A stretch of 64,000 nucleotides of DNA from Candidatus Multivorans thiocomprendens. Lineage in GTDB: Bacteria; Acidobacteriota; Thermoanaerobaculia; Multivoradales; Multivoraceae. Location of the stretch: contig JAPVWO010000250.1 in assembly GCA_027493375.1 (NCBI GenBank), positions 1,743 through 65,742 of the forward strand, read 5' to 3'. Below are positions 7,855 to 40,783 of this stretch, one piece after another (position 1 is the stretch's first letter; each line of letters starts with the position of its first letter). The translations under genes and the position numbers were made by a program. The notes below the pieces were generated by a model. That model made no database searches. It was given only the letters and a program-made list of their open reading frames with translations, and was not told the origin of the DNA.

Positions 7855-8591
<737 letters not shown>

Positions 8592-8592
<1 letters not shown>

Positions 8593-19884: not shown

Positions 19885-19942
19885 GCTCCGCCCTCCTGGG
19901 TTTGAGCGGGCCATCGTAGCAGCGTCGCCTGGCGGAACGGAC

Positions 19943-20461: not shown

Positions 20462-20533
20462 GAGGTCCCCCTTCGCGGCTATCATGGCATGATCCCGCCG
20501 GCCCCGGTAACGACCCGGAGACGAACCCCAGCC

Positions 20534-21784: not shown

Positions 21785-22895
21785 CGCGCCAACCGCGGCA
21801 CTGGCGATCGCCGCGCTCGCGCTCGCGGGTTGCGGAGCCGGGGAGGGCAGTTCAGGGCAGGGGCCGTTCGCCCGCTACCCGGAGAAGCTCTCGAGCTGGG
21901 GCCTGTTCACGGGAGAACCCGCGAGCCACATCCCGGCCCCCGGCGTCGAACCCTACGACCTGAACACGGCGCTGTTTTCGGACTACGCGCTGAAGTTCCG
22001 CTTCGTGCGCCTGCCGGAAGGGGCTGACGGCGACGTCGAGCCCGCGCTGTACCGCGAGGAGGGCCCGTTCGAGTTTCCGGTCGGCACGGTCATCTCGAAG
22101 ACCTTCGCCTACCCCGCGGACTTCCGGCTTCCGGAGGACGGTCCGCGGCCGCTGGAAACCAGGCTGCTGGTCCACGAGGAGGGCGGCTGGGTCGGCCTGC
22201 CGTACATCTGGAACGCCGAACTGACCGACGCTGAACTCGCCATCGTCGGCGGACCCCTTGAGGTGTCCTGGATCGATGCCGAAGGCGCGAGGATCGAGCA
22301 CACGTACCGGGTGCCGAACGCGAACCAGTGCAAGACCTGCCACCGGACGGACGGCGAGCGGGTGCTGCCGATCGGTCCCCAGGCCGCGCAGTTGAACCGC
22401 AACTTCGTCTATGCCGAGACCGACGGCTCCACCCTCTCCGAGAACCAGCTCGAGCGATGGCGGCGACTGGGCTTCCTCGAGGGCGCGCCGCCGGCTGCCG
22501 AGACGCCCCGCGCACCGGTCTGGAACGTCGGGCTCTCCGGCAGCGTCGACGAGCGGGCGCGCACCTGGCTCGACATCAACTGCGCCCATTGCCACAACCT
22601 GAAGGGAAGCGGACGCACGTCGGGCCTCGACCTGCGCAAGGAACACCGGGACCGGACCAGGCTGGGCGTCTACAAGCACCCGGTAGCCGCCGGCCAGGGC
22701 ACCGGCGACCGCCTGTACGGGGTCGTTCCCGGCAGGCCCGACGAATCGATCCTCGTCTACCGGATCGAATCGACGCACCCCGGCATCATGATGCCCGAGC
22801 TCGGCCGCGGTCTCGTCGACATCGAGTCGGTGGCCCTGATCCGCCAGTGGATCCTGGAGATGGAACCGCCGGAACAGCGGGAGCGGGCCGGATAA
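21771..22895 (+). CDS. SO_2930-family-like diheme c-type cytochrome, lipoprotein
   Basis: Lipobox ALALAGC. Two heme sites are present, CKTCH and CAHCH. The start overlaps the preceding beta-helix gene by 14 nt. Confidence 0.7.
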   Translation: MALRSAPTAALAIAALALAGCGAGEGSSGQGPFARYPEKLSSWGLFTGEPASHIPAPGVEPYDLNTALFSDYALKFRFVRLPEGADGDVEPALYREEGPFEFPVGTVISKTFAYPADFRLPEDGPRPLETRLLVHEEGGWVGLPYIWNAELTDAELAIVGGPLEVSWIDAEGARIEHTYRVPNANQCKTCHRTDGERVLPIGPQAAQLNRNFVYAETDGSTLSENQLERWRRLGFLEGAPPAAETPRAPVWNVGLSGSVDERARTWLDINCAHCHNLKGSGRTSGLDLRKEHRDRTRLGVYKHPVAAGQGTGDRLYGVVPGRPDESILVYRIESTHPGIMMPELGRGLVDIESVALIRQWILEMEPPEQRERAG

Positions 22896-22995: not shown

Positions 22996-23652
22996 CTACT
23001 CCGCCAGGACCTGCCGGGTGCGGTGGAAGACCTCGTCCAGGCCCACCGCGTCCGAGGCGTAGTAGCCGCGGACTCCGCCGTCGCGGTCGACGAGGGCCAG
23101 CCGTGCCGCGTGGGCCACATCGACCAGGCCGCCGGCGAGGTCCAGCCGCTCGCCCATGGGCAGGGCGAAACCGTCGACAACCAGCGAACGCACGTCCGGC
23201 TCGGCGCCGGTGACGAGGCTCCAGTGCTCCAGGTCCAGGCTCCGGCTCCGCGCGTAATCACGGAGCCGCTCCGGCGTGTCGTGCGCCGGATCGACCGTGA
23301 AGCTCACCAGCGTCACTTCCTCCACGCCCTCCTCGCGGTAGCGGCGCTCCAGTTGACGCAGCGAGGCAGTGAGGCGTGGACAGACCGTGGCGCAACGCGT
23401 GAACAGGAAGGACGCGACGTAGACCCCGCCAGCCAGATCGTCGCTGCCGAACGACCCGCCGTTCTGGTCGACCAGCCGCCACTGCGGCAACTGGCGCAGG
23501 ACCGGCGGCGGGTCGGGTTCGAACCGGAGCAGCGGCCGGAGCGCCGGGATCAGGACGAAGCCTGCCAGCGCCGCGAGAAACCAGGGGTTCAGCAAGCTCC
23601 GGCGAGGCTCCCGCGCGCCTCCATCGAGGCCGGAACGAGGGTCCTCGGACAT
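22996..23652 (-). CDS. SCO1/SenC family copper chaperone (thioredoxin fold)
   Basis: N-terminal TM segment. Motif FLFTRCATVCP (C-x3-C) is present, with a downstream His (VAHAARLALVDRDG). It is divergent from the ActA operon. Confidence 0.85.
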   Translation of the reverse strand: MSEDPRSGLDGGAREPRRSLLNPWFLAALAGFVLIPALRPLLRFEPDPPPVLRQLPQWRLVDQNGGSFGSDDLAGGVYVASFLFTRCATVCPRLTASLRQLERRYREEGVEEVTLVSFTVDPAHDTPERLRDYARSRSLDLEHWSLVTGAEPDVRSLVVDGFALPMGERLDLAGGLVDVAHAARLALVDRDGGVRGYYASDAVGLDEVFHRTRQVLAE

Positions 23653-23668
23653 GATCCGAGCCTATCCG

Positions 23669-23697
23669 GGCGCCGGGCTTTGACCGCCTCGATAGCA
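23669..23697 (+). promoter_or_regulatory. Sigma-70-like promoter candidate for the ActA operon
   Basis: TTGACC (23669-23674), a 17-nt spacer, then TACACT (23692-23697). It lies in the 74-nt divergent region between SCO and actA. Confidence 0.4.
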
Positions 23698-23762
23698 CGC
23701 TGTACACTCCGCGCGATCTCGGAGGGGTGCAGGGCTCATACCCTGCTTCGGGGTACGGAGTT

Positions 23763-24410
23763 TTGGCACAGATCTTCCCCAAGTGGACTCTCAAGGTTCC
23801 GCTCTACGTGGCGCTTGCCCTGCCGGTGGGCGGCGGTGCCGTAGCGGGCGGCATCTGGTACTTCTTCTCGCCCGAGTACACCGATGTCGGCTACCGGCCG
23901 GCGCAGCCCGTGCCCTACAGCCACGCGCTCCACGTCGGCGAACTCGGCCTCGACTGCCGTTACTGCCACGCCTCGGTCGAGGAGTCGGCGGTGTCCAACG
24001 TCCCCCCGACCCAGGTCTGCATGAACTGCCACCACGTCGCCGTCCGGGACAGCGAGCTGCTGGAACCGATTCGCAAGAGCATCGAACAGGGTCGTCCGAT
24101 GCGCTGGGTGCGCATCCACAACCTTCCCGACTACGCGTTCTTCGACCACAGCGTTCATGTCGGGGCCGGTGTCGGCTGCCGGACCTGCCACGGTCCGGTC
24201 CACGAGATGGAGGTCGTGTCCCAGGTGGAGCCTCTGAGCATGAGTTGGTGCCTCGACTGTCACCGCGACCCGGGTCCGCACCTGCGGCCGCTCGAAGCGG
24301 TGACCGACATGGAGTGGATTCCGACCGGAGACCACGAGGCCTTCGCCGAGCTGGCGATCGCGGAACGGGCGCTGGCGCCTCCTGAAGACTGCACGGCGTG
24401 CCACCGATGA
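23763..24410 (+). CDS. actA: Alternative complex III subunit ActA, membrane-anchored pentaheme cytochrome c
   Basis: Five CxxCH sites are present: CRYCH, CMNCH, CRTCH, CLDCH and CTACH. The N-terminus ...AQIFPKWTLKVPLYV matches the usual ActA/NrfH-like start, so I prefer the TTG at 23763. The GTG at 23727 is the longest alternative. Confidence 0.85.
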   Translation: MAQIFPKWTLKVPLYVALALPVGGGAVAGGIWYFFSPEYTDVGYRPAQPVPYSHALHVGELGLDCRYCHASVEESAVSNVPPTQVCMNCHHVAVRDSELLEPIRKSIEQGRPMRWVRIHNLPDYAFFDHSVHVGAGVGCRTCHGPVHEMEVVSQVEPLSMSWCLDCHRDPGPHLRPLEAVTDMEWIPTGDHEAFAELAIAERALAPPEDCTACHR

Positions 24411-27400
24411 GCGCGGGCAACGGCAAGCGGCCGGACAGAACCTACTGGCGCAGCCTGGAACAACTCCAGGGAGTTTCCGGGCCGGTCGCCCTCCGGCAGA
24501 TCGACGGCCAGGAGCGTGAGTTCCCGGAGGGCGCGTCGGAAGCGCCGCCCGAACTGCTGCGGGACGGCGTCAGCCGCCGCGGCGTGCTCGCCATGCTGGG
24601 TGGTACGGCCTCGCTCGCCGGCCTGACCGGCTGCGACATCATCCGCCGCCCGGTCGAACACATCGTTCCCTACGTCGACGCCCCGGAGGGCATGGTCCCC
24701 GGCGTTCCGCTGGCCTACGCCACGACGATGCCGTTCGGCAGCCGCGCCCTCGGTCTGCTGGTGGAGAGCCACGAGGGTCGGCCGACGAAGGTCGAAGGCA
24801 ACGAACTCCATCCGTTCTCGGAAGGCGCATCGAGCGTGTGGGCCCAGTCCTCGATGCTCGACCTGTACGACCCCGACCGGTCGAAGTCCGTACGGTTCGG
24901 CGACGAGGCGTCCTCCTGGGACGACTTCGTGGCCGCCTGGAACGAAGGCGACCTCGGCCCCGCGGCCGACGGCACCGGCTTCGCCATCCTCGCCGAGCCG
25001 TCCTCGTCGCCGACCCTGGTCCGGCTCAAGGAAGCGCTCCTCGACCGCTATCCGCAGGCCCGATGGGTGACCTGGGAGCCGGTGAGCGAAGAGAACGCCG
25101 ACCAGGGGACGGCGTCCGCCGCCGGTGAGCACGTCCACGCGCTCTACCATGTGGACCGCGCGCAGGTCCTGCTGACCCTGGACTCCGACTTCCTCAGCAC
25201 CGAGGGCGACAGCGTCCGCAACCTGCGCGGCTACGGCCGCGGCCGGCGCGTGAACGAGGCCGGCGGCGGCACCATGCTGCGCCACTATGCCGTCGACGGC
25301 GTCCACTCGGTGACCGCGGCCGGCGCGGACCACCGCCTACGAGTGCAGAGCGGCCGCGTCGCGGCCCTCGTCGCCCGCCTTGGCAGCGCGCTCGCGGGTC
25401 ACGGCCTGGAACTGCCGGTGGGTGCCGGCGCGCCGGCCGCCGACATCGACGAGGCCTGGGTCGAAGCGCTGGCGCAGGACCTGATCGCACACCGGGGCGC
25501 CGGGCTGATCGTCGCCGGCAACCGCCAGCCGGCGGCCGTCCACGCCGCCGTCTACGTCCTGAACTCGGCGCTCGGCAACGCGGGCTCGACGGTGACGTAC
25601 CACCGGACGCCCGACAGCGGCAGTTCGAGCGACGCGGACCTTGCCGCCCTGTCGTCGGCGATCCGGGAAGGCGCGGTCGACCGTCTGCTGATCCTGGGCG
25701 CCAACCCGGCCTACAGCGCTCCCGCCGACCTCGACTTCCCGGCCGCCCTCGAGAGCCTGGGCGAAACGGCCGCGGTTATCCACGCCGGCGCCTACCGGGA
25801 CGAAACGAGCCGCTTCGCGCGCTGGCACCTGCCGCTCGCCCACTATCTGGAGAGCTGGGGCGACGCCCGGGCCACCGACGGCACGGCGAGCGTCGTGCAG
25901 CCCCTGATCGAGCCGCTCCACGGCGCGAAGAGCCTGGTCGAGGTGCTCGCCCTGGCCGCGACGGGCGAGTCCCGCGACGGCCGCGATCTGGTCCGCGAGA
26001 CCTGGTCCGGGATCCTCGGCCTGCCGCTCGAGGAGGACGCCGACGAGGCGGCCGCCGCCGGGACCGCGCCGGAAGCCGAGACAGACGCCGAAGCCGCCGC
26101 TGACGGCGAGGTCGAAGAGACCGAAGCGGAAGAGGCCGTGCCGGTCGACCCGATGTCGCTGCCGTTCCCCGTCGCGCTCTCCGGGTTCGAAGTCGCCTGG
26201 CGCAAGGTGTTGCACGACGGCCTGCTGGACGGCAGCGCCGCGGCGGCGGCCGATCTCCCCGCCATCGCGCCCGAGGATGGCGCCGCCGCGGTTCGCGCCG
26301 CCGGCGACGCCGCCCAACCGATCGCCGCGGGCGACGAGATGGAGATCGTCTTCCGGTGTTCCCCGGCGGTCCACGACGGTCGCTTCGCCAACAACGGCTG
26401 GCTTCAGGAGCTGCCGGACGCGATGACCAAGCTGACCTGGGACAACGCCGCCCTGATCAGCCCCGCCACCGCCGCCGCGCTGGGTCTCGAGAACGAGGAC
26501 CTCGTCACGGTGGCCTCCGGCGGCCGGCAACTCGAGCTTCCCGTCTGGCAGGTGCCGGGACAGGCGGACAACACGGTGACGATCGACCTCGGCTACGGCC
26601 GCGACTTCACTGGCCGGATCGCGAGCGCCGCCAACCTCGAGGGCCACGGTCCGGGGCGCAACGCCTATCTGCTGCGCACCTCGGAGGCGCCCGACCTCGC
26701 CCGCGGCGCGCTGAGCCCGACCGGCGGCGCCTACCCGCTGGCGCAGACCCAGGACCACCACTCGATGGAGGGCCGCCCGATCGTCCGCGAGGCCGATCTC
26801 GACTACTTCGAAGCACATCCCGACTTCGCGACGGCCCACGGCGAGAAGCCGCACGAGAACTCGATGTGGGACGAGTGGACCTACAAGGACTCGCCGCAGT
26901 GGGGCATGACGATCGACCTGAACGCCTGCGTCGGCTGCAACGCCTGCATGATCGCCTGCCAGAGCGAGAACAACGTGCCGATCGTCGGCAAGGAGCAGGT
27001 GATGGAGGGCCGGGAGATGCACTGGCTCCGCATCGACCGCTACTTCTCCGACGAGGGAGAATCCCGCGGCATGCTCCGGGACCTCGTCCACGACCTCCCC
27101 AACGAGCCGCGGACGAGCTTCCAGCCGGTGCCCTGCATGCAGTGCGAGAACGCGCCCTGCGAGCAGGTCTGCCCGGTCGCGGCCACCGTGCACGACAGCG
27201 AAGGGCTGAACGCGATGGTCTACAACCGTTGCATCGGCACCCGCTACTGCTCGAACAACTGCCCCTACAAGGTACGGCGCTTCAACTACTTCAACTTCAC
27301 CAAGGACACTCCCGAGGTGATGAAGCTGGGCAAGAACCCGGACGTCACGATCCGTTCCCGGGGCGTCATGGAGAAGTGCACGTACTGCGTCCAGCGAATC

Positions 27401-27691
27401 AGCCGGGCGAAGGTCGACGCCAAGCAGGACGGCCGGCCCCTGGCCGACGGCGACGTGGTCACCGCCTGCCAGCAGGCCTGTCCGGCCGAGGCGATCCGCT
27501 TCGGCGACATCACGGATGCCGCCAGCGGCGTTTCCCAGGCGAAGGCCAGTCCCCGCAACTACAAGTTGCTCGACGACCTGCACACGAAGCCCCGGACGAC
27601 CTACCTCGCGAAGATCCGCCACCCGAACCGCGACATCACGCCGGCGCCGCCACCCGCCGAAGACCACGGCGGCGGCGAGGACGCGCACTGA
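24407..27691 (+). CDS. actB: Alternative complex III subunit ActB (Mo-free molybdopterin-oxidoreductase-like B1 fused to 4Fe-4S B2), Tat signal
   Basis: ATG at 24407 overlaps the actA stop (ATGA). YWRSLEQL, Tat motif SRRGVLAMLGG and HEGRPTKVEGNELHP...LDLYDPDRS are present. There is no N-terminal Cys cluster. The C-terminal ferredoxin shows CVGCNACMIACQSENN, CMQCENAPCEQVCP, CIGTRYCSNNCPYK and CTYC...ACQQACP. Confidence 0.9.
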   Translation: MSAGNGKRPDRTYWRSLEQLQGVSGPVALRQIDGQEREFPEGASEAPPELLRDGVSRRGVLAMLGGTASLAGLTGCDIIRRPVEHIVPYVDAPEGMVPGVPLAYATTMPFGSRALGLLVESHEGRPTKVEGNELHPFSEGASSVWAQSSMLDLYDPDRSKSVRFGDEASSWDDFVAAWNEGDLGPAADGTGFAILAEPSSSPTLVRLKEALLDRYPQARWVTWEPVSEENADQGTASAAGEHVHALYHVDRAQVLLTLDSDFLSTEGDSVRNLRGYGRGRRVNEAGGGTMLRHYAVDGVHSVTAAGADHRLRVQSGRVAALVARLGSALAGHGLELPVGAGAPAADIDEAWVEALAQDLIAHRGAGLIVAGNRQPAAVHAAVYVLNSALGNAGSTVTYHRTPDSGSSSDADLAALSSAIREGAVDRLLILGANPAYSAPADLDFPAALESLGETAAVIHAGAYRDETSRFARWHLPLAHYLESWGDARATDGTASVVQPLIEPLHGAKSLVEVLALAATGESRDGRDLVRETWSGILGLPLEEDADEAAAAGTAPEAETDAEAAADGEVEETEAEEAVPVDPMSLPFPVALSGFEVAWRKVLHDGLLDGSAAAAADLPAIAPEDGAAAVRAAGDAAQPIAAGDEMEIVFRCSPAVHDGRFANNGWLQELPDAMTKLTWDNAALISPATAAALGLENEDLVTVASGGRQLELPVWQVPGQADNTVTIDLGYGRDFTGRIASAANLEGHGPGRNAYLLRTSEAPDLARGALSPTGGAYPLAQTQDHHSMEGRPIVREADLDYFEAHPDFATAHGEKPHENSMWDEWTYKDSPQWGMTIDLNACVGCNACMIACQSENNVPIVGKEQVMEGREMHWLRIDRYFSDEGESRGMLRDLVHDLPNEPRTSFQPVPCMQCENAPCEQVCPVAATVHDSEGLNAMVYNRCIGTRYCSNNCPYKVRRFNYFNFTKDTPEVMKLGKNPDVTIRSRGVMEKCTYCVQRISRAKVDAKQDGRPLADGDVVTACQQACPAEAIRFGDITDAASGVSQAKASPRNYKLLDDLHTKPRTTYLAKIRHPNRDITPAPPPAEDHGGGEDAH

Positions 27692-28380
27692 TGCGGCTTG
27701 CCTGGAACTGGCCGCCCACTGGGTGCGCGGGTCTTCTGACCCGCTGCCGCCGCAGGCGGCCAGGAGAACGCGCCGGCCGTCAGGCCGGCTCCGTCCGGGC
27801 GGCCAGATCCATGCAAGCTCTGGCAGCCGTCCTGCTGCTGCTCGGCTGCCGGGGCATGCCGTCGCCCTTTCCGCCGATCCACCCCAACCCGAACATGGAC
27901 TACCAGGAGCGCTACGACCCGCAGGAGGCGAGCGCCTTCTTCTACGACGGCATGGCGATGCGCCAGCCGGTCGCGGGCACGGTGGCGCGCGGGCAGCTCG
28001 ACGTCGATCACCGCCTTCTGTTCGGGCGCGACGACGAGGGTTACTTCCTCGAAACCTCGCCTCTGGCGGTCACCGACGAGGTGCTGGCCCGGGGCGAGAA
28101 CCGGTACGAGATCTACTGCCAGCCCTGCCACGACGAGCGCGGCACCGGTCAGGGCATCCTGTTCGAGCGCGCCAGCACCCCCACCGCCTCCCTCCACGAT
28201 GAACGCATCGCCGCCTACAACGATGGCCGCCTGTACGACGTGATCACGAACGGTGTCGGGTTGATGGCGGGCTACCGCTATCCGCTGACGGTCGACGACC
28301 GCTGGGCGGTCGTCGCCTACGTCCGTGAGCTGCAGCAGGAACGCCGAACGATGCAGGCGGAGCGGGAAGCACGCCAGTAG
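27691..28380 (+). CDS. actE: ActE-like monoheme cytochrome c lipoprotein
   Basis: Lipobox LLLLGC. A single CQPCH site is present. The C-terminal MAGYRYPLTVDDRWAVVAYVRELQ is typical of ACIII ActE. The start is uncertain: the ATG at 27691 overlaps the actB stop (TGATG), and the ATG at 27811 is the alternative. Confidence 0.7.
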   Translation: MRLAWNWPPTGCAGLLTRCRRRRPGERAGRQAGSVRAARSMQALAAVLLLLGCRGMPSPFPPIHPNPNMDYQERYDPQEASAFFYDGMAMRQPVAGTVARGQLDVDHRLLFGRDDEGYFLETSPLAVTDEVLARGENRYEIYCQPCHDERGTGQGILFERASTPTASLHDERIAAYNDGRLYDVITNGVGLMAGYRYPLTVDDRWAVVAYVRELQQERRTMQAEREARQ

Positions 28381-28394
28381 CGCCCGGGGAACAG

Positions 28395-30326
28395 ATGACC
28401 AGAAACAGGATCCTCTTCGGCATCGGCGTTCTCGCCTTCGTGTCCGTGATCGTCACGGTGCGTCTGGGCGGTTTCCTGGTGGACAACGAGTACCGCCAGC
28501 CGGACCGGCAGGTCGCCGCCCAGGAAGAGCTGGGCGAGGCCGAACTCGTGCCACGCCAGCAGGGCATTGCCGACGAGCAGGCCGCGGACGAAGCCGAAGC
28601 GCGGGCGAGGCCCTACGAGGAGGCCGAGTACCGCACGGTGCCGTTCGTCGGCAGCCGGGTGACCGTGTGGGTGCTGGCGCAGCTCCATCTGCTGTTCGCG
28701 GCGTTCGTCCTCGCCGTGCCGCTGTTCGCCTTCATCATCGAGTTCGTCGGCTACGTCAAGAAGGAGGAGCGGTACAACAAGCTGGCGTACGAGTTCACGA
28801 AGCTCCTCTCCGTCTCGTTCTCGATGACCGCCACCTTCGGGGCGTTCCTGACCTTCGCGTTGATCATCCTCTACCCGAAGTTCACGAACTACCTGATGCA
28901 CATCTTCTCGCCGACGTTCCTGCCCTACGTCCTGCTTTTCTTCCTGGAAGCGCTCTTCCTCTACAGCTACTACTACGGCTGGGGCAAGTTCGGGCCGAAA
29001 ATGCACCTGTTCCTGGGCTTCATGCTGAACATCGTGGGCACCGCGATCATGTTCATCGCGAACGCCTGGCTGACCTTCATGATGTCGCCCGGCAAGCGCG
29101 ACGACATCGATGGCGACGGCGTCCCGGACTTCGTCTCCGCGGTCTCGGAGAGCGGCGCACTCCTCAGCCTCCGAGACGCCTTCTTCAACTTCACCTGGAT
29201 GCCGATCAACATCCACCGGATCATCGCGAACGTCGCCTTCGGCGGCTCGATCGCCGCCGCCTACGCCGCCTTCCGCTACCTGCAGGCGAAGTCCGACGAG
29301 GAGAGGGCCCACTTCGACTGGATGGGCTACGTCGGCAACTTCGTCGCCATCATCGCCTTCCTGCCCCTGCCGTTCGCGGGCTACTACCTGGCCGCCGAGA
29401 TCTACGCCTTCAGCCAGACCCTGGGCATCCAGATGATGGGCGGCACGTTCTCCTGGCTGTTCGTCCTCCAGGCGGCCCTCATCGGCAACCTGTTCCTGGG
29501 CGCCAACTACTACCTCTGGCTGGGGATGGGCCGCATGGAGGGCGGCGTCCACTTCCAGAAGTTCATCAAGTGGCTGCTGATCGCGATCGCCCTCTGCTTC
29601 GCCGTCTGGGCAACGCCGCGCTACGCCATCTCTTCGGTCTCCGAGATCGCCGCGATGGGGGGCAGCAGCCACCCGCAGCTTTCCTACCTGGGGCAGATGT
29701 CGGCCAAGAACACGGCGGTCAACATCCTGATCCTCTCGACCTACATGAGCTTCCTGCTCTACCGGCGGACCGGCAGGCAATCGATCCATCCGCACAGGCA
29801 GCTCCTCACCCGCGCACAGGCGATCGTCTTCTCCTCCGCGGCGGCGCTGGTCATCTTCTACGGCGTCTACGGCTACTTCGTCGACTCGGCGACGCGCATC
29901 CGGTTCGCGATTCCGCAGGTCTACTCCGTGCTCGCGGCCCTGGTGGTGATCACGGTGATCGACCTGCCCCTGTACCGCAACGCCGCGCAGTCGGGCGAAA
30001 CCAAATGGGGCAGAATCCCGGCCGTCTCGCAGTACGCCCTCATCTTCATTGCCCTCAGCTTCACCTGGCTGATGGGGCTGATGGGCTACGTCCGCTCCGG
30101 CCTGCGCCAGGAATGGCATGTGTACGGCGTGATCCTCGACACCTCCCCGGACGCCTACACGCCCAGCCTGGGCTTCGCGACGCAGGTCGTCTCCGTCACG
30201 GTTCTCATCTTCTTCGGCCTGATCGGCGTCGTCTTCTGGCTCAGCAGCCTGAGCGGCAAGAAGGACTACGCGCCGGGCGCTGCCGCTGAGGACGGCGGCC
30301 GGCTCGAAGGGGGCCAGACGGCATGA
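28395..30326 (+). CDS. Cytochrome bd-like membrane protein (CydA superfamily, no Q-loop)
   Basis: By eye it aligns to E. coli CydA at four segments. AQLHLLFAAFVLAVP aligns with the H19 region. FFLEALFLYSYYYGWGKFG...IANAWLTFMMSPG aligns with FFLESTFVGLFFFGWDRLG...VANGWMQNP. INIHRIIANVAFGG aligns with the H186 region. GYVRSGLRQEWHVYG aligns with EYGRQPW. It has 643 aa and many TM segments, with only a short loop where the quinol-binding Q-loop would be. Confidence 0.75.
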   Translation: MTRNRILFGIGVLAFVSVIVTVRLGGFLVDNEYRQPDRQVAAQEELGEAELVPRQQGIADEQAADEAEARARPYEEAEYRTVPFVGSRVTVWVLAQLHLLFAAFVLAVPLFAFIIEFVGYVKKEERYNKLAYEFTKLLSVSFSMTATFGAFLTFALIILYPKFTNYLMHIFSPTFLPYVLLFFLEALFLYSYYYGWGKFGPKMHLFLGFMLNIVGTAIMFIANAWLTFMMSPGKRDDIDGDGVPDFVSAVSESGALLSLRDAFFNFTWMPINIHRIIANVAFGGSIAAAYAAFRYLQAKSDEERAHFDWMGYVGNFVAIIAFLPLPFAGYYLAAEIYAFSQTLGIQMMGGTFSWLFVLQAALIGNLFLGANYYLWLGMGRMEGGVHFQKFIKWLLIAIALCFAVWATPRYAISSVSEIAAMGGSSHPQLSYLGQMSAKNTAVNILILSTYMSFLLYRRTGRQSIHPHRQLLTRAQAIVFSSAAALVIFYGVYGYFVDSATRIRFAIPQVYSVLAALVVITVIDLPLYRNAAQSGETKWGRIPAVSQYALIFIALSFTWLMGLMGYVRSGLRQEWHVYGVILDTSPDAYTPSLGFATQVVSVTVLIFFGLIGVVFWLSSLSGKKDYAPGAAAEDGGRLEGGQTA

Positions 30327-30808
30327 AGCTCTCCGTTCCCATGCCGCTGCGGCTGGTCCTTCTCGTGCTGGGCACCACGGCCTTCTACATGTACCTGGGC
30401 CAGATCGTGCCGCAGAAGGAATCCCACCCACCGCCGCCGGTCCTGATCAACGCCGAGATGACGACGGAGGACCTGGTGGCGGTCGGCGCGGAGCTGGCGA
30501 GCGGCAAGGGCCAGTGCCTCGTCGGGTGTCACACGGTCGGCCAGAGCGGCCCCTTGCGCTATCCGGACCTGGACGGCATCGGCGGCCGCGCCGCCACCCA
30601 GGTGGACGGCCTGTCCGACCTGGAGTATCTCGCCCAGTCGCTCTACGAGCCGGCCGTGTTCATCGTCCCAGGGTTTGCCGACGGAATGCAGGCCATCAAC
30701 CAGCCGCCGATCAACCTCTCCGACGACGAGATCAAGGCGGTGATCGCCTGGCTGCAGAGCCTGGGCGGTACGCCGAACGTGACCCTGGACACCGATCTCG
30801 GCTATTGA
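30323..30808 (+). CDS. Membrane-anchored monoheme class I cytochrome c
   Basis: ATG overlaps the bd-like gene stop (ATGA). N-terminal TM segment. A single CLVGCH site and a distal Met (ADGMQAIN) are present. The C-terminus reads IAWLQSLGG. Confidence 0.7.
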   Translation: MKLSVPMPLRLVLLVLGTTAFYMYLGQIVPQKESHPPPPVLINAEMTTEDLVAVGAELASGKGQCLVGCHTVGQSGPLRYPDLDGIGGRAATQVDGLSDLEYLAQSLYEPAVFIVPGFADGMQAINQPPINLSDDEIKAVIAWLQSLGGTPNVTLDTDLGY

Positions 30809-30816
30809 CGTGAACT

Positions 30817-30832
30817 TTCAGAAATTTCTGAA
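30817..30832. promoter_or_regulatory. Perfect 16-nt AT-rich palindrome TTCAGAAATTTCTGAA (candidate operator)
   Basis: Seen directly in the sequence. It lies in the 119-nt intergenic gap inside the cytochrome operon. The half-site TTCTGAAC occurs again at 30864-30871. Confidence 0.3.
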
Positions 30833-30927
30833 CAGATGAGGAACAACCTCCTGCCCGTCGCTGTTCTGAACGGTGACTGCCCCCAAAGCGGTCGACCCTC
30901 AGCCCCTCGAACCTGCCGGAACTGATC

Positions 30928-31746
30928 ATGTTGGGACTCAACCTTCCCGTTGTCATCGTCCTGGCCGCGGTCGGCGGCGTACTCGCCTGGCGCCGGGCCA
31001 ACACTCTCACCTGGCTGCTCTACACCTGGGTCGCCCTGTGGGCCTTCTTCAAGTACGGCTTCGCCGTGCCGATCCCGCGGTCCGTGGCGACGATCTACCT
31101 CGGAATCACCGGGCTCGCGCTGGTCTGCTTCGCCTCCTCGAGCCGGGAACGGTTGTCGGAGACGGTCCAGCCGATCGCGCGGCTCATTCTCGAACCCCGC
31201 TACCGCCTGGCCCTCGCCGGGCTTCTCGTCGCCCTGCCGGCACTCGCCGCCTACAACGTCTACGCCGATCTGAACGTGCCGCTGGAGGCGCCCGGTTTCG
31301 GCCGGGAGGTCCATCCGCCGCCGCCCACGGAGATGACCGTCCACGACGAGACGGTCGACATGGCGACGGCCGAGAACCCGTACCTGCACTACAACCACGA
31401 CGATCCGGAGCTCTACGGAGAGCACCTGGAGAACGGGCGGCGGGTCTACTACGAGAACTGCTTCTGGTGCCACGGCGACGGCATGGGCGGAGACGGCATG
31501 TTCGCCCACGGCCTGAATCCCGTGCCCAGCAACTTCAACGATGTCGGCACGTTGCCGATCCTCCAGTCCTCCTTCGTCCACTGGCGGATTGCCAAGGGTG
31601 CTCCGGGCCTTCCCGGCGCGGGGACCCCCTGGGACAGCATGATGCCGGCCTGGGAGAAGTTCCTCACCACCGAGGAGATGTGGGACGTCAACCTCTTCAT
31701 CTACGACTTCAACGGCTACGAGCCGCGCGCCCTGGGGCAGCACTGA
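30928..31746 (+). CDS. Polytopic membrane protein with a C-terminal monoheme cytochrome c domain
   Basis: About four N-terminal TM segments are followed by GRRVYYENCFWCHGDGMGGDG (CxxCH) and ...MMPAWEKFLTTEEMWDVNLFIY. Confidence 0.7.
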   Translation: MLGLNLPVVIVLAAVGGVLAWRRANTLTWLLYTWVALWAFFKYGFAVPIPRSVATIYLGITGLALVCFASSSRERLSETVQPIARLILEPRYRLALAGLLVALPALAAYNVYADLNVPLEAPGFGREVHPPPPTEMTVHDETVDMATAENPYLHYNHDDPELYGEHLENGRRVYYENCFWCHGDGMGGDGMFAHGLNPVPSNFNDVGTLPILQSSFVHWRIAKGAPGLPGAGTPWDSMMPAWEKFLTTEEMWDVNLFIYDFNGYEPRALGQH

Positions 31747-33548
31747 TGACCGTGCACGCCAGACGACGCGCTCGGGCCATGGCCACGTTGGCCGCTGCCG
31801 TCCTGCTCGTGGCCCTGCCGGCCGGCGGCCAGGTCGACCTCGGCACCGAGGAGCAGCGCGCGGCCGGAAAGATCGTCTACGACAAGTACTGCGGCCAGTG
31901 CCACGGCGACACCGGCGACGGCAACGGCTACGCCACGCCGCGCGTCAAGCCGAAGCCGCGCGACTTCACGACGGGCACCTACAAGTTCCGCACCACGCCG
32001 AACGGCATGCTGCCCACGGACGACGACCTGCGCCGCGTGATCGAGATCGGCGCCCCCTACACCTCGATGCCGGGCTGGCCGAACCTGACGAGCGCCGAGA
32101 TCCAGAACGTCATCTACTACATCAAGTCCTTCTCGCCCGACTTCGAGAACCCCGACCGCTACGGCGAGCCGATCGAGATTCCCCGGCCGCTCGAATCGAC
32201 CGAGGAGTCGATCGCCCGCGGCCGCGTGGTCTACGAGGAGCAGGGCTGCGCCGCCTGCCACGGCGAGGTCGGGCGGGGCGACGGCCCATCGGCGCCGACC
32301 CTGGTCAATGACAAGGGCGACCCGATCAAGGTCGCCGACCTCACCCAGCGCTGGACCTACCGCGGCGGTGCGACGAAGGAAGACATCTACCGCACCTTCT
32401 CCACCGGCCTGAACGGCACGCCCATGCCGTCCTACGCCGACTCGCTCGAGATCGAGGATCGCCAGCACCTGGTGAACTACGTCTACTCGCTGGGCGACGG
32501 AGACGATCCGAACTACGGCACGCTGATCACGGCGGTCTACTCGGAAGAGCCGATCGACCTGGAGGACGGAGAAACGCTCGACGCGCTGTTCGAGACCGCG
32601 CCGATGACCCGCTTCCCCCTCGTCGGCCAGATCAGCGAACCGGGACGCAACTTCTTCCCCTCCGTCACCTCGATCGAGGCCCAGGCGGTCTACAACCGCG
32701 ACGAGATCGCGTTCCGGGTCCGCTGGCACGACCTCCGCGCCGACACCTCGGGCCGCAACAGCCCGAGCCTGGAAGTGCCGATGTGGGACGAGGACAACGG
32801 CATCGGCGCAGAGGCGGCCGACGACGGCGGCGACGATTTCTTCGGGGATGCCGGAGGGGACGATTTCTTTGGCGAGTTCGGCGGCGAGGAAGCGCCCGCG
32901 GAGGACGACTTCTTCGGCGATAGCGGCGGCGACGACTTCTTCGGTGACGGCGGCGACGACTTCTTCGGCGCCGCCGACGCAGGGCCCCCCGGCGCCGAGT
33001 TCTCCGACGCCGTGGCGCTGCAGTTCCCGGCCTCGCTGGCGCCCGAGGAGACTCCCGAACTCAAGCCGTACTTCCTCTACGGCGACTCCCAGAACCCGGT
33101 CGACCTCTGGTTCGTCAACCTGACGTACGGTGTCGCCGACACATTCCGGGGCCGCGGCAGTGAGTCGATCGAGCCCACCGAGGCCGACATCGTCGAAGCC
33201 GTGACTTCCTACGACCAGGGCGAATGGACCGTGACGTACAAGCGGCGGCGCTCGTCGCGCGCCGGCGTCAGCTTCGCCGAGCAGCAGTACACGCCGGTCG
33301 CCTTCAGCGTCTGGGACGGCTTCAACCGCGAACGCGGAAACAAGCGGGCGCTGTCGTCCTGGTTCTACGTCTACACCGAACCGAGCGTGCAGCCGGCGAC
33401 GACGTTCCCCATCGTCCGGGCAGCCGTCATCGTGCTCGTGCTCGAACTGCTGGTCGTCTTCCTGGTTCGCCGCCGGGCCCGCCGGCAGGCGGCCGGCGAA
33501 GAGGCCGCGGGCGGGACCCTCGCCGCAACCGAGGCGCCCGCCGTCTGA
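31746..33548 (+). CDS. Diheme cytochrome c fused to an ethylbenzene-dehydrogenase-gamma-like (EB_dh) domain, with C-terminal TM anchor
   Basis: Start trimmed to the ATG at 31746 (1-nt overlap with the upstream stop). There is a signal peptide and two heme sites, CGQCH and CAACH. The later AQAVYNRDEIAFRVRWHD...AVALQFP...PVAFSVWDGFNRERGNKRALSSW resembles the EB_dh / DMSO-reductase gamma-subunit fold. The terminal TM segment is AAVIVLVLELLVVFLV. Confidence 0.7.
   Translation: MTVHARRRARAMATLAAAVLLVALPAGGQVDLGTEEQRAAGKIVYDKYCGQCHGDTGDGNGYATPRVKPKPRDFTTGTYKFRTTPNGMLPTDDDLRRVIEIGAPYTSMPGWPNLTSAEIQNVIYYIKSFSPDFENPDRYGEPIEIPRPLESTEESIARGRVVYEEQGCAACHGEVGRGDGPSAPTLVNDKGDPIKVADLTQRWTYRGGATKEDIYRTFSTGLNGTPMPSYADSLEIEDRQHLVNYVYSLGDGDDPNYGTLITAVYSEEPIDLEDGETLDALFETAPMTRFPLVGQISEPGRNFFPSVTSIEAQAVYNRDEIAFRVRWHDLRADTSGRNSPSLEVPMWDEDNGIGAEAADDGGDDFFGDAGGDDFFGEFGGEEAPAEDDFFGDSGGDDFFGDGGDDFFGAADAGPPGAEFSDAVALQFPASLAPEETPELKPYFLYGDSQNPVDLWFVNLTYGVADTFRGRGSESIEPTEADIVEAVTSYDQGEWTVTYKRRRSSRAGVSFAEQQYTPVAFSVWDGFNRERGNKRALSSWFYVYTEPSVQPATTFPIVRAAVIVLVLELLVVFLVRRRARRQAAGEEAAGGTLAATEAPAV
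32820..32969 (+). repeat. In-frame acidic-aromatic tandem repeat (five DDFFG units) inside the EB_dh-like domain
   Basis: The translation is DDGGDDFFGDAGGDDFFGEFGGEEAPAEDDFFGDSGGDDFFGDGGDDFFG. The DNA units ggcggcgacgacttcttcgg recur nearly identically. Confidence 0.9.
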
Positions 33549-33624: not shown

Positions 33625-35784
33625 ATGTACAAGACGATCTACGTCCCCGTCGACAACTCGGACTACTCGAACCAGGCGATCGCCTCCGCGGTCGAGCTGG
33701 GCCGCGAGTTCGACTCCACGATGGTCGGCTGCCACGTCTACGCGGCCAGCATGCACGACTACCGCTTCAAGCAGATGGAGTACACCCTGCCGGACGAGTA
33801 CCTCGAGGAGACGGAGCTCGACCGCCAGCGGAAGATCCACGACTCGCTCATCACGATGGGCCTGGAGCTCATCTCCGAGAGCTACCTCGAGCCGATGAAG
33901 GCGGTCTGCGACGACGCCGGCCTCGAGTTCGAGCCGAAGATGATGGACGGCAAGCACCACGTCGAGATCGTCCGCGACATCCGCGAATCGGGCTACGACC
34001 TGACGGTGCTCGGCGTGATGGGGATCGGCCGCGTCCGCGACACCCAGATCGGCTCCGTCTGCGAACGCGTGGCCCGCACCGCCGACAGGGACGTCCTGGT
34101 CATCAAGCGGCTGCCCGCGGGGGCGACCGCGACGAACGGAAACGGCAACGGGCACCATACCGAGGCCGACGGCCGCGACACGATCCTGGTCGGCGTCGAC
34201 GGCTCGCCCCAGTCCTTCGGAGCGCTGATGACGGCGATCGACCTGGCGAAGACCCTCGGCAAGAAGGTCGAGGCGATCTCGGTCTACGACCCCTACCTGC
34301 ATTACTCCGTGTTCAAGGGCGTGGTCAACGTGCTGACCGAGCGCGCGGCGAAGATCTTCCGCTTCGAGGAGCAGAACCAGCTCCACGAGGAGATCATCGA
34401 CACCGGTCTGGCGCAGATCTACCAGTCCCACCTGGATGTCGCCGAGACGATGGCGACCGAGGTCGGCGTGGAGTTGACGAAGACGCTCCTCGACGGCAAG
34501 GCGTTCCAGAAGGTCCTCGACCATGCCAGGAAGATCGATCCCTGGATGCTGGTCATCGGCCGGGTCGGCGTCCACAGTGACGAGAGCGAGACCGGCCTCG
34601 GCAGCAACGCCGAGAACCTGCTCCGCGCCTGCCCCTGCGACCTGCTCCTGACCACTCGCCTGGAGCACCCGGAACTCGACGTCAAGGCCGAGGAGAGCAT
34701 CCGCTGGACCCCCGAAGCCGAGGAGCGTTTCAAGCGGGTGCCCGAGCAGGTGCGCGGCATCGCCCGCACCGCCCTCTACAGGCTGGCCGTCGAGCAGGGA
34801 CACAGCGTGATCTCGAGCAACGTGCTCGACGAGGCGATGGACCGCTACATGCCGAAGTACACCGCCCGCGAGACGGAGGCCCTGGCCGAGAAGCTCGCCC
34901 TGCAGCTCGCGCGCAGCCGGCCGACCTTCATCTGCAGGAAGTGCGGCGTCACCTCGGCCGAACCCGATCCGGTGCGCTGCGGCGTCTGCGGCAGCGACTC
35001 CTTCGAGCAGATCACCGAAGAGATGCTGGAACGGATCGCCGAAATGGAAGGCGGTCTCGAGGTCGAGACCACCTACGACGGCCGCAAGCTGAAGTGGACC
35101 GCCGACGCCCGCCTGGCCCTCAAGACGATCGAGGACGCCTACCGCCGCCGCCGCGCCAAGGCCCGGATCGAGAAGAAGGCGCGGATGAGCAAGCTGCCGA
35201 CCGTCACCTTCGAGTTCGCCCGCGTGATGATCGAGGACGAGACCGGCGAGCCGGTGACGATCGAGGCCCGTGAGCAGGCGACCGAGGCCAACGGCAACGG
35301 CGCCGCCGAGACGTCGGCCGACGAACGCAAGCTGATCGCCCGCGACGACGACCGCGTCCCGCTGCTCTCGAACCACGAGTGGACCGCCGAAGCCGTCGAG
35401 CGCATCCTCCGGGTTCCCGCCGGCTTCATGCGCGACCGCACCCAGGAGCGCGTCGAACTGGTGGCCCGCGAAAAGCACGTCTCCCGGATCGGCATCAAGA
35501 CGGTCGAGGAGGGCATCGAGCTCGGCCGCGAGCTGATGGAGCAGATGATCGCGGCCTACGAGCTAGACAAGAAGGACGAGTCGCCCGCCGGGGACGTCGC
35601 CGAGGCCGAAGCAAAGGCCGCGACCGCCGCCGGCAGGTGCCCCTTCTCCGCTCTCGCCGAAGCCGGCGCCAGCGACGCCCAGGTCGAGGCGGCCAAGGAC
35701 GCGAAGGCCGGGAGCTACCTGAACGAGGTCGGCCTGATGTCGGCCCTGGACGAGAAGCGCAAGGCCGATGAGTCCCGCAACTGA
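33625..35784 (+). CDS. Double universal-stress-protein (USP) domains fused to a zinc ribbon and three PCP_red-like (BchB C-terminal-like) domains
   Basis: USP1 is IYVPVDNSDYS...LTVLGVMG...VCERVARTADRDVLVIK. USP2 is ILVGVDGSPQS...LVIGRVG...GSNAENLLRACPCDLLL. The zinc ribbon is CRKCG...CGVCG. The PCP_red-like units are RWTPEAEERFKRVPEQVRGIARTALYRLAVEQGHSVISSNVLDEA, KWTADARLALKTIEDAY... and EWTAEAVERILRVPAGFMRDRTQERVELVAREK. Confidence 0.8.
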   Translation: MYKTIYVPVDNSDYSNQAIASAVELGREFDSTMVGCHVYAASMHDYRFKQMEYTLPDEYLEETELDRQRKIHDSLITMGLELISESYLEPMKAVCDDAGLEFEPKMMDGKHHVEIVRDIRESGYDLTVLGVMGIGRVRDTQIGSVCERVARTADRDVLVIKRLPAGATATNGNGNGHHTEADGRDTILVGVDGSPQSFGALMTAIDLAKTLGKKVEAISVYDPYLHYSVFKGVVNVLTERAAKIFRFEEQNQLHEEIIDTGLAQIYQSHLDVAETMATEVGVELTKTLLDGKAFQKVLDHARKIDPWMLVIGRVGVHSDESETGLGSNAENLLRACPCDLLLTTRLEHPELDVKAEESIRWTPEAEERFKRVPEQVRGIARTALYRLAVEQGHSVISSNVLDEAMDRYMPKYTARETEALAEKLALQLARSRPTFICRKCGVTSAEPDPVRCGVCGSDSFEQITEEMLERIAEMEGGLEVETTYDGRKLKWTADARLALKTIEDAYRRRRAKARIEKKARMSKLPTVTFEFARVMIEDETGEPVTIEAREQATEANGNGAAETSADERKLIARDDDRVPLLSNHEWTAEAVERILRVPAGFMRDRTQERVELVAREKHVSRIGIKTVEEGIELGRELMEQMIAAYELDKKDESPAGDVAEAEAKAATAAGRCPFSALAEAGASDAQVEAAKDAKAGSYLNEVGLMSALDEKRKADESRN

Positions 35785-35922: not shown

Positions 35923-36702
35923 ATGGCCACGGCGCAGCCATCCGACAAAGAAGACGATGACAAGGAGACGTCCGACATCTCTGTCGTTTCTCTGGTGTAC
36001 GCAGAGGCGGTCGCCGCCGGCCTTGAAGACGAACAGGTCGTTCGAGAGGTCTTTGCCGCCCTGGTCGCCAAAGCCGACTACCAGGTGCTCAAACGCCTTT
36101 ACGCTTCCGTGGTCCGCAAGAACCGCGAGCGGCAGTCAATCGTCCGCCGCTCCCTGCGCGAGACCGGCTACAGGCAGGAAGTCTGGGCCGAGTGGCCGAG
36201 CCAGAAGGTCAACGCCCTGTACGCGATGGCCATCGCCTCAGGCGCTGAACCCGACCCCGTGCTTCGACAGCGTCTCTTCCGGCTCCTGGACCGTGAGGCC
36301 GATGACGCTGGGCCCGACATCCTGTGCGATGCTTCCTGTGGGCCGGAAGACCCTGAGCATCCCTTCAACATCTACGACACGGACATCTTCCGGGAATGGC
36401 TGGGATGGTACGAGCACGTCTTCCACGGCGGTCCGGCTCCCGCTGTTCTCTTTGAAATCGACGCCGCGCAGATCGAGAAGCTGATCGACGGATCATGCAC
36501 TATCGCCCAAGCGGTGTCCGCGATTGGCACCGTTGCTGACGTCATTGAAATCGTCAGGAACGATCCCCCTGCCGGGCTGTTCTGGAAAAAGAAGATCGTG
36601 AAGTGGCTGGCCAAGGCCGGCGTAAAGATCACTGTCTCGCAGGTCACGGGGGTAGGCGGCATGCTTAACCTTGCCGCTGTTCTGTGCGAACTCCGAGAAT
36701 AG
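35923..36702 (+). CDS. Hypothetical protein (no recognisable domain), lower-GC gene
   Basis: 259-aa ORF with an acidic N-terminus and no signal peptide. The C-terminal part is amphipathic/hydrophobic. Codon usage is visibly less GC3-biased than in neighbouring genes. Confidence 0.5.
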   Translation: MATAQPSDKEDDDKETSDISVVSLVYAEAVAAGLEDEQVVREVFAALVAKADYQVLKRLYASVVRKNRERQSIVRRSLRETGYRQEVWAEWPSQKVNALYAMAIASGAEPDPVLRQRLFRLLDREADDAGPDILCDASCGPEDPEHPFNIYDTDIFREWLGWYEHVFHGGPAPAVLFEIDAAQIEKLIDGSCTIAQAVSAIGTVADVIEIVRNDPPAGLFWKKKIVKWLAKAGVKITVSQVTGVGGMLNLAAVLCELRE

Positions 36703-36704
36703 CT

Positions 36705-40767: not shown

Positions 40768-40783
40768 CCGCCTGGAGCCGGCG

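Follow-up and report, generated by a model that had tools for sequence, protein, structure and literature searches.

Nitrite oxidisers and manganese oxidisers are presumed to rely mainly on OR-N 'bd-like oxidases' as terminal oxidases. The electron donor, the subunit composition and the activity of these enzymes have, to our knowledge, never been measured. As far as the text of the preprint by Murali, Gennis & Hemp goes (bioRxiv 10.1101/2021.01.16.426971), members of the OR-N2 subfamily have 14 transmembrane (TM) helices, are typically encoded in operons with several cytochromes c and a homologue of EbdC, and use an unknown electron donor, possibly cytochrome c. The 14-TM bd-like protein encoded beside the nitrite oxidoreductase (NXR) genes of Nitrospina, Nitrospira and Kuenenia is of this kind (PMC3578206). 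Linkage between the genes of alternative complex III (ACIII) and of oxidases is known in general (Refojo 2010, cited in PMC12342949), and in solved ACIII the iron-sulfur (FeS) subunit ActB touches all other subunits, with its [3Fe-4S] cluster facing the membrane subunits (PMC5928083). Here we describe a seven-gene cluster from a 64,000-nt stretch of contig JAPVWO010000250.1 (Candidatus Multivorans thiocomprendens, Acidobacteriota; hereafter the window, in whose numbering its positions are given; G+C 68%). Homologues of ActA, ActB and ActE, named ActA', ActB' and ActE' below, stand there directly upstream of an OR-N2 core, without NrfD-type subunits. This arrangement is apparently new, whereas the OR-N2 core itself is already known.

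A gene cluster joining ACIII-type and bd-like genes

The nearest relatives of the window carry the labels Candidatus Multivorans or Holophagales, and contig JAJEHN010000009.1, from a Thermoanaerobaculia metagenome-assembled genome (MAG) of the Acidobacteriota, is 99% identical across the bd-like gene; the host lineage is a soil- and sponge-type acidobacterium. The seven genes run in one direction, on the plus strand, from 23,763 to 33,548, and overlap or nearly abut one another. Automatic annotation had labelled the bd-like and ActB' genes 'cytochrome ubiquinol oxidase subunit I' and 'molybdopterin oxidoreductase'. All seven products are identified, and the features of the cluster and its upstream border are as follows.

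22996..23652, minus strand: SCO1/SenC copper chaperone with a CxxxC motif (PF02630, 4.8e-24), divergent from the operon
23680..23708, plus strand: promoter-like site TTGACC-N17-TACACT, upstream of actA' and facing it
23763..24410, plus strand: ActA', pentaheme cytochrome c with an N-terminal TM helix (6F0K_A, 7.8e-67)
24407..27691, plus strand: ActB', 1094 aa, with a twin-arginine translocation (Tat) signal, a cofactor-less, molybdopterin-like B1 part and a four-cluster ferredoxin B2 part (6F0K_B, 8.3e-266)
27691..28380, plus strand: ActE', monoheme cytochrome c lipoprotein with an LLLGC lipobox (6F0K_E, 7.8e-54)
28395..30326, plus strand: OR-N2-type bd-like protein, 643 aa, without a Q-loop (PF01654, signature residues, AlphaFold2 (AF2) model)
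28488..28652, plus strand: periplasmic N-terminal linker of the bd-like protein, residues 32-86 (EY[RK]xP...TPRxQG[IL]ADE motif)
30323..30808, plus strand: c161, membrane-anchored monoheme cytochrome c (PF00034, 1.2e-5)
30928..31746, plus strand: TMc272, about three TM helices and a monoheme cytochrome c domain (PF13442/PF00034; one CFWCH)
31746..33548, plus strand: diheme cytochrome c fused to EB_dh (EbdC/NxrC-like, heme b), with a C-terminal TM anchor (PF09459, 9.5e-14)

The genes actA' and actB' share an ATGA (24407-24410), as do the bd-like gene and c161 (30323-30326). A 1-nt overlap joins actB' to actE', provided that actE' starts at 27691, and another joins TMc272 to the diheme-EB_dh gene at 31746. 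The initial annotation, made from the sequence before this analysis, had described such a co-directional set with these stop/start and 1-nt overlaps, and the junctions were confirmed. Between 23.7 and 33.5 kb on the plus strand, no convincing intergenic terminator-like site was found, the single plus-strand hit (32837) falling within the last gene. The same annotation had placed a good promoter, TTGACC-N17-TACACT, in the region from which the SCO gene is divergently transcribed. The site is present and is the sole promoter-like site in 22.9-42.8 kb, but this count equals the expectation from shuffled sequence (0.9), and on the plus strand it faces actA'. As the promoter of actA' it is suggestive only.

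CxxCH motifs number five in ActA', one each in ActE' and TMc272, and two in the diheme-EB_dh protein. The three cytochromes that follow the bd-like gene were correctly read at the outset as two monoheme proteins and one diheme-c/EB_dh protein, except that the heme motif of c161 is CX3CH and not CXXCH. This variant (CLVGCH, residues 64-69, 30512-30529) occurs in the window and five close relatives, whereas 75 homologues have CXXCH. The c161 protein resembles PDB 7ZS0 (3.4e-20). The diheme part of the last protein matches 6H5L_B (7.8e-57), which we take to be a Kuenenia protein, and its EB_dh part aligns to 2IVF_C and matches TIGR03477 at 2.9e-21, with 75.7 bits where the cut-off is 169.85. Within the EB_dh domain, one loop (32813-32970) carries tandem acidic-aromatic repeats, DDFFG five times here and DPFAE, DFWGEE or DPWGD in other Acidobacteriota. 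These repeats are found in acidobacterial loci with and without Act genes alike, and the loop is short in the Rhodothermales.

The bd-like protein carries the OR-N2 signature

The 643-aa protein matches PF01654 at 7.6e-25, and the match is confined to residues 87-335. A profile of 24 homologues, run against the PDB, returned CydA chains only, with homology ending after TM5 and H98 at the H19/H21 position. The AF2 model, with a moderate predicted local distance difference test (pLDDT) value of 66, has an N-terminal anchor helix and 14 further helices, 15 in all, and membrane helices fill the place of the Q-loop. A Foldseek search with this model gave CydA (E 1e-7 to 1e-5) and then CydB, and no PsrC, NrfD or ActC structure was among the matches. 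The possibility that the protein is NrfD/PsrC-like was rejected, as Pfam, the PDB profile search and Foldseek gave only CydA and CydB, in agreement with the CydA-like assignment of the initial annotation.

We compared the residues with Supplementary Table 6 of Murali, Gennis & Hemp. The equivalents in the bd-like protein of E. coli CydA residues are the following.

H19: H98
E99: Y178
E107: E185
F114/F116: Y192/Y194
H126: H204
H186: H274
M393: M435/N439
E445: S568
W441: W574

The H19-, E107- and H186-like residues noted earlier are thus kept as H98, E185 and H274, and the lack of a Q-loop is upheld, as there is no Q-loop homology. The spacings also match those of OR-N2: from E to the two Y residues +7/+9, from S to W +6, and from S to N/M -129/-133. 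In 67 homologues, the signature residues are invariant or nearly so, and the equivalents of H19, E107, H126 and H186 are invariant. By this residue signature and its 14 TM helices, the bd-like protein is a member of the OR-N2 subfamily of the cytochrome bd superfamily. It does not belong to canonical cytochrome bd (CydAB), for it has no Q-loop homology and has S568 for E445, and no PF02322 protein is encoded in the cluster. The OR-N2 signature and the known operon together make the downstream half of the cluster an already catalogued system.

The Act genes are a lineage-specific addition to a self-standing core

Among genomes taken one per GTDB species, a scan found at least 593 matching stretches, and the proteins that match at E <= 1e-10 number at least 6,996. 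We fetched 83 relatives (loci labelled L0xx) and mapped the window proteins onto them by tblastn. The core of bd-like gene, c161, TMc272 and diheme-EB_dh gene is present in 72/72 loci with enough downstream sequence, which come from Acidobacteriota, Rhodothermales, Calditrichia, Fibrobacteria and Myxococcota. In a Myxococcota MAG, L069 (from 3964 to at least 13455), two divergent copies of the whole core were seen.

In 43/47 Acidobacteriota loci, which span several classes, actB' and actE' immediately precede the bd-like gene; they do so in none of 14 Rhodothermales loci and none of five from other named phyla. Six further loci with Act genes (Act+) have unclassified or implausible MAG labels and stand apart from these counts. 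The order A'-B'-E'-bd is thus conserved across genomes, a check that the initial annotation had asked for. In loci without Act genes (Act-), the bd-like gene is preceded by unrelated genes or by divergent ones, so that it opens the operon there, and no alternative electron-input module (Rieske/cytochrome b or NrfD) was found at that place. Other phyla and four Acidobacteriota loci have the core but no Act genes; the core is therefore self-standing, and ActA'B'E' is a lineage-specific addition.

ActA', ActB' and ActE' are homologues of ACIII subunits

The best solved-structure matches of the three proteins are chains A, B and E of the Rhodothermus marinus ACIII (6F0K), followed by the other ACIII structures. 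For ActA', the alignment with 6F0K_A covers residues 14-226, and the likeliest start is the TTG at 23763, which gives 215 aa as in homologues. The five hemes are kept in 41/45 ActA' homologues, and identity to canonical ActA of related genomes is 40-45%. The best NCBIfam matches of ActB' are TIGR04519 (a TAT-variant Moco-like N-terminus), QrcC (7e-59) and QrcB (6e-20), all below their cut-offs, and a Pfam search for PF00384 and Mo-FeS (FS0) domains in ActB' gave no match. Its B2 part scores in NCBIfam as QrcC/DsrO/NrfC type and not as NarH/EbdB type. Fifteen cysteines in a 4+4+3+4 pattern, kept in 96% of bd-linked copies, would suffice for three [4Fe-4S] clusters and one [3Fe-4S] cluster, and Cys76, also conserved, lies in a lipobox-like LTGC after the Tat signal. 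The start of ActE' is ambiguous (27691, 27793 or 27811), and its single heme motif is CQPCH. The 6F0K matches and the motifs therefore confirm the three products as first read, i.e. a pentaheme ActA, a Tat-signal ActB with a ferredoxin half, predicted to be free of molybdenum (Mo), and an ActE-like monoheme lipoprotein.

Every bd-linked ActB', the copy from the same genome included, shares about 45% identity with canonical ActB, and the window ActB' is 52-55% identical to most other bd-linked copies. In a neighbour-joining tree of ActB, the three canonical copies stand apart from 45 of the 46 bd-linked ones. At the level of sequence, these comparisons show ActA'B'E' to be a paralogous set distinct from the canonical ACIII subunits. 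All three proteins are under purifying selection: against close relatives, the ratio of nonsynonymous to synonymous substitution rates (dN/dS) is 0.10-0.22 for actA', actB' and actE' (0.10-0.15 for actA' alone), similar to that of neighbouring genes.

The exception in the tree is L019, a Thermoanaerobaculia MAG (2440-7269), whose bd-linked ActB groups with the canonical copies and is 48.5% identical to the canonical ActB of L084. It may represent an independent or more recent recruitment.

NrfD-type subunits, ActD and heme-copper oxidase are absent from the window

The large multi-TM open reading frames (ORFs) of the window are MFS or FtsX proteins, with no NrfD (PF03916) among them. Canonical ActC, ActD, ActF and COX1 of related Acidobacteriota (the ActD query from L084) gave no tblastn match in the 64 kb, and profile hidden Markov models (HMMs) of ActC and ActF against all six frames reached a best E of 1.7. 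Pfam found no PF11821 (ActD) in the gene cluster. The two absences first read from the sequence, of any NrfD-like ORF in any frame and of heme-copper oxidase genes, both hold across the window, the former by Pfam, tblastn and the six-frame HMMs and the latter by the COX1 search. Nor is NrfD, ActC or ActF encoded between actB' and the bd-like gene in any of the 43 Acidobacteriota loci that are Act+, and ActC/F are missing within 10 kb of most Act+ loci.

A local deletion or an assembly artefact that removed ActC/D/F was considered and rejected, since the same order is found in 43/47 independent Acidobacteriota assemblies. Adjacency of ActC/D/F in relatives had been named beforehand as a sign of such a deletion. 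These genes are indeed present next to the cluster in some relatives, but within a complete canonical ACIII (ActA, ActB, NrfD/ActC, ActD, ActE, ActF), at L084 1-5899, L085 1-8006, L066 695-4444, L025 1-4642 and L043 1-2602. As they are part of an additional, full ACIII that has ActA/B/E of its own, they do not indicate a local deletion.

In L085, the canonical ACIII is followed by SCO1, which lies between it and the caa3 genes. Upstream of the cluster, cox genes occur in the Act+ loci L034, L039, L047, L048 and L054, and ACIII and cox genes precede a bare OR-N2 core in the Rhodothermales L077, L080 and L081. These arrangements suggest an ancestral ACIII-caa3-OR-N2 respiratory neighbourhood. 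The copper chaperone of the window, found as predicted on the minus strand divergent from the operon, is likewise matched by an SCO gene upstream of actA' in 21 related loci. It is probably a relic of an ACIII-SCO1-caa3-bd neighbourhood, as the relatives suggest, which would explain why it stands as an orphan here. Its membership in the ActA'B'E'-bd system is uncertain.

A linker motif of the bd-like protein accompanies the Act genes

Two alignment columns separate Act+ from Act- loci in the four core proteins, and both lie in the N-terminal linker of the bd-like protein; no discriminating residues were found in c161, TMc272 or the diheme-EB_dh protein. The columns belong to a segment of about 45 residues between the anchor helix and TM1, EY[RK]xPxR...TPRxQG[IL]ADE...PYxExEYR. 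TPR is found in 41/47 Act+ loci, the other six having VPR, APR or TPH, and in 0/17 Act- loci, four of which are Acidobacteriota. Linkers of the Act- Acidobacteriota are Ala/Pro-rich, and in the Rhodothermales an apparent cleavable signal peptide runs straight into TM1. In E. coli CydA, the N-terminus of TM1 is outside, and if this topology holds, the segment should be periplasmic. The Act-specific motif is the co-variation expected of a docking element, which suggests direct contact between the bd-like protein and the Act' proteins.

Gene fusions were seen at the same end of the protein. In the Fibrobacteria loci L062 (~1335-3365) and L078 (~4215-6353), a signal peptide and a monoheme cytochrome c (CLACH) are fused before TM1 and replace the anchor helix, which supports a c-type heme as the direct electron donor of the bd-like protein. 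In L003 (10001-12526, protein P0118) and L048 (~8339-10741), ActE' and the bd-like protein form a single in-frame ORF that retains the anchor helix. A real fusion would then invert the membrane topology, so these ORFs are weak evidence, and internal initiation or assembly error is a possible origin.

Neighbouring genes

Downstream of the seven genes, Pfam and other family models identify a further group of genes.

33625..35784, plus strand: Usp-Usp-PCP_red x2 protein (PF00582, 1.3e-36; PF08369, 1.9e-20)
38461-39372, plus strand: GNAT (Pfam)
39397-40275, plus strand: Mrp/ApbC-type Fe-S carrier (Pfam; MrpORP, 3.5e-49, below cut-off)
40288-40767, plus strand: small PCP_red protein (Pfam)
~40772-42154, plus strand: AhbD/NirJ-like radical SAM-SPASM protein with a C-terminal PCP_red domain (AhbD, 6.8e-88; NirJ2, 6.5e-82; both below cut-offs)

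The Usp-Usp-PCP_red gene follows the core in 64/68 loci, and its product probably has an accessory or maturation role. The GNAT/Mrp/PCP_red/radical SAM set is also found downstream of the core in Acidobacteriota and Rhodothermales. We take the PCP_red domain to cover the bound tetrapyrrole; its Pfam name comes from the 57-kD (BchB) subunit of protochlorophyllide reductase. Given this tetrapyrrole link and the likeness to the tetrapyrrole-modifying enzymes AhbD (heme b synthase) and NirJ2, the set may modify or insert heme for the bd-like enzyme, i.e. act as a heme modification or maturation system for the bd-like complex. The linkage hints at dedicated cofactor chemistry, and our literature search found no paper that links the radical SAM gene set to bd-like oxidases.

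Other neighbours are more local. At 19754-22895, a parallel beta-helix/NosD-like protein gene (TIGR03805, 4.3e-122) overlaps that of an SO2930-family diheme cytochrome c (TIGR03806, 3e-108), both above cut-offs; the pair stands upstream of SCO1 only in the window's clade and L001. Between the Usp/PCP_red and GNAT genes (35923-38456) lie a 259-aa ORF without a family match and a lactate/monocarboxylate-type MFS transporter gene, the latter found at this place only in the window's clade (L004-L012, L045, L075). Directly after the radical SAM gene (42183-42839) comes a gene for an FGE-sulfatase/EgtB-like domain protein (PF03781, 6e-26).

A proposed assembly and alternative readings

To account for the cluster, we propose, with modest conviction, a hybrid assembly in which an ACIII-derived FeS/heme wire (ActA'B'E') feeds an OR-N2 terminal reductase. 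The OR-N2 operon of Acidobacteriota would have captured a dedicated, paralogous electron-transfer arm of ACIII, and the seven proteins would form one membrane-bound assembly. The TM helix of ActA' and the lipobox cysteines of ActB' and ActE' mean that all three could be tethered to the membrane without NrfD. Electrons would pass from the FeS clusters of ActB' to the hemes of ActA', to ActE' and to the anchored c-hemes, and then, within the bd-like subunit, to a b558-like heme (H274/M435) and to the heme ligated by H98; this subunit would reduce the terminal acceptor, most probably O2. Candidate entry sites into ActB' are a new quinol site in the bd-like protein or TMc272, the EB_dh domain, or a borrowed ActC/F. 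The NrfD-less ActA/B/E module seen in the initial annotation is itself real, as shown by its occurrence in 43/47 loci, its separate ActB clade, purifying selection and the Act-linked motif. The accompanying claim that the bd-like protein replaces ActC/ActF was overstated, since the same bd/cytochrome c/EB_dh core occurs without any Act genes and ActC/F may be supplied in trans.

Several points weigh against the hybrid assembly. The case for a single assembly is drawn from synteny and sequence. As ActB contacts all ACIII subunits and its [3Fe-4S] cluster faces the membrane subunits, ActB' without ActC/F has no known electron entry, and a canonical ACIII with ActC/D/F is the immediate neighbour of the cluster in L025, L043, L066, L084 and L085. 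Docking of the Act proteins is not a property of the core, which lacks them in Rhodothermales, Calditrichia, Fibrobacteria, Myxococcota and four Acidobacteriota loci. The correlation between the TPR motif and the Act genes is phylogenetically non-independent, and the ActE'-bd fusion was downgraded as proof of contact, the anchor helix being kept in P0118 and L048. As for the bd-like subunit, S568 occupies the position of the heme b595 ligand E445, the pLDDT of its AF2 model is moderate, and our literature search found no biochemical demonstration of O2 reduction by any OR-N enzyme. A bolder form of the proposal is a self-contained machine, in which the bd-like subunit and the cytochromes would provide both an ActC/F-type electron entry and terminal reduction, the Act arm would wire the two and dock on the N-terminal motif, and the active-site or EB_dh heme would be a tetrapyrrole modified by the AhbD/NirJ-like set. 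We consider this form unlikely; if true, it would be a new class of quinol-to-acceptor oxidoreductase made from parts of two unrelated respiratory enzymes.

The five loci with an adjoining canonical ACIII, with or without SCO1 and caa3 genes, also speak for another explanation, namely that ActA'B'E' assembles on the ActC/D/F of a canonical ACIII encoded elsewhere. The result would be an ACIII isoform with ordinary quinol oxidation, its exit heme (ActE') being suited to the bd-like oxidase and not to caa3, and NrfD would be missing from the operon only. The cox genes upstream of five Act+ loci point the same way, as do the FeS ligands, Tat signal and lipobox-like cysteine that ActB' shares with canonical ActB and the contacts of ActB with all other subunits in solved ACIII (PMC5928083). 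Of the Acidobacteria species sampled, 86% carry ActC/F genes (PMC8076601), which together with the frequent ACIII adjacency makes supply in trans a serious rival. Nevertheless, only A, B and E are duplicated, always within the bd operon and never in the ACIII operon, the Act-specific motif of the bd-like subunit points to direct contact, ActC/F are lacking in the window and, within 10 kb, in most Act+ loci, and membrane subunits split over two operons would require unusual stoichiometric control. We give supply in trans a minority chance, though a real one.

Alternatively, the complex may be no oxygen reductase at all. As has been proposed for its relatives beside NXR in nitrite oxidisers and anammox bacteria, the core would move electrons between periplasmic modules and the quinone pool, maybe in reverse, or reduce another acceptor, and ActB' would dock on EB_dh as beta does on gamma in type II dimethyl sulfoxide (DMSO) reductases. 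The replacement of E445 by Ser leaves room for such a role, and E99 is replaced by Tyr as well. In the Nitrospina genome paper, the 14-TM bd-like protein is described as enigmatic in function, and a quinone-linked role resembling that of ACIII is suggested for it (PMC3578206). In EBDH/NXR the EB_dh protein is a heme-b gamma subunit that receives electrons from a four-cluster beta subunit, a ferredoxin of the kind seen in B2 of ActB'. Against this, the equivalents of H19, E107, H126 and H186, residues kept in oxygen-reducing members, are invariant, the loci adjoin the aerobic respiratory genes of ACIII and caa3, B2 is of NrfC/QrcC and not NarH/EbdB type, and the Rhodothermales core has no alpha/beta-type partner in its operon. 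A non-oxidase role seems improbable. That the adjacency is meaningless, with ActA'B'E' a decaying partial ACIII duplicate upstream of an independent OR-N2 operon, could be argued from the canonical ACIII often found next door and from the autonomy of the OR-N2 core in other phyla. This is very hard to square with the A'-B'-E'-bd order in 43/47 Acidobacteriota loci of several classes, with dN/dS values of 0.10-0.22 and the kept heme and FeS ligands, or with the start/stop overlaps, the distinct ActB' clade and a bd-like motif that co-varies with the Act' genes.

If the hybrid assembly is right, ActA'B'E' is a candidate hard-wired donor which, with its co-varying docking motif, yields testable predictions on electron delivery. 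The locus also suggests that the peripheral arm of ACIII can be conserved and selected apart from the NrfD-type subunits, which bears on the modular evolution of respiratory complexes. Acidobacteriota are among the most abundant soil bacteria, and an unrecognised respiratory branch would alter metagenome readings of their oxygen physiology.

Comparison with known systems

In our literature search, which covered the text and not the figures of Murali et al., no description was found of an NrfD-less ActA/B/E set with an OR-N2 operon in Acidobacteriota. ActA', ActB' and ActE' are clear homologues of ActA, ActB and ActE of the ACIII of R. marinus (6F0K), Flavobacterium johnsoniae (6BTM) and R. castenholzii (6LOD), but ACIII has ActC, ActF and ActD, and the operon of the window continues instead with a CydA-like protein. 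Qrc (QrcABCD) follows the same module logic, with a multiheme cytochrome c, a Mo-free molybdopterin-like protein and a four-cluster ferredoxin. QrcA, QrcB and QrcC are also the best NCBIfam matches of ActA' and ActB'. However, these scores are 67/71/199 bits against cut-offs of 180/440/400, the window has no QrcD (NrfD), and the ACIII subunits are much closer. The type II DMSO reductases (EBDH/NXR-type) share the EB_dh domain, whereas their alpha subunit with molybdenum bis(pyranopterin guanine dinucleotide) (Mo-bisPGD) and their NarH-type beta subunit are absent here. The NXR gene set of Nitrospira, Nitrospina and Kuenenia (PMC3578206) holds the same blocks as the core, i.e. NxrC-like EB_dh, mono- and diheme cytochromes c and a bd-like protein. 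It includes an NxrA/B-type molybdoenzyme, of which there is none here, the periplasmic FeS partner being the cofactor-less ActB'.

The ACIII-aa3 supercomplex of F. johnsoniae (6BTM) is a precedent for an ACIII heme wire that hands electrons to a bound oxidase. There, a heme-copper oxidase is joined to a complete ACIII, whereas the present system, known from its genes, pairs a bd-like partner with A, B and E only. An ACIII-type complex and a Q-loop-less bd-like oxidase share one locus in the Nitrospirales (actABCDE and OR-N5), read as a quinol-to-oxidase chain (PMC12342949), and a bd-like oxidase lies with complex III or ACIII-like parts in TO_3/TO_4 of 'Ca. Manganitrophus' (PMC9040806). There, ActC (NrfD) and ActD are retained, ActB is split, and the oxidase is a 10-TM OR-N5a/b pair; the cluster described here encodes a single 14-TM OR-N2 protein with three cytochromes, and no ActC/D. 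Closest to the downstream half of the cluster is the OR-N2 system itself (the NIDE0901-type 'bd-like oxidase'), with which it shares the 14 TM helices, the lack of a Q-loop, the residue signature and the operon of cytochromes c and EbdC, as given in the text of 10.1101/2021.01.16.426971. That text names cytochromes c and EbdC and no ACIII subunits as operon partners, whereas in the Acidobacteriota the OR-N2 core is accompanied by ActA'B'E' and by the Act-linked motif of the bd-like protein.

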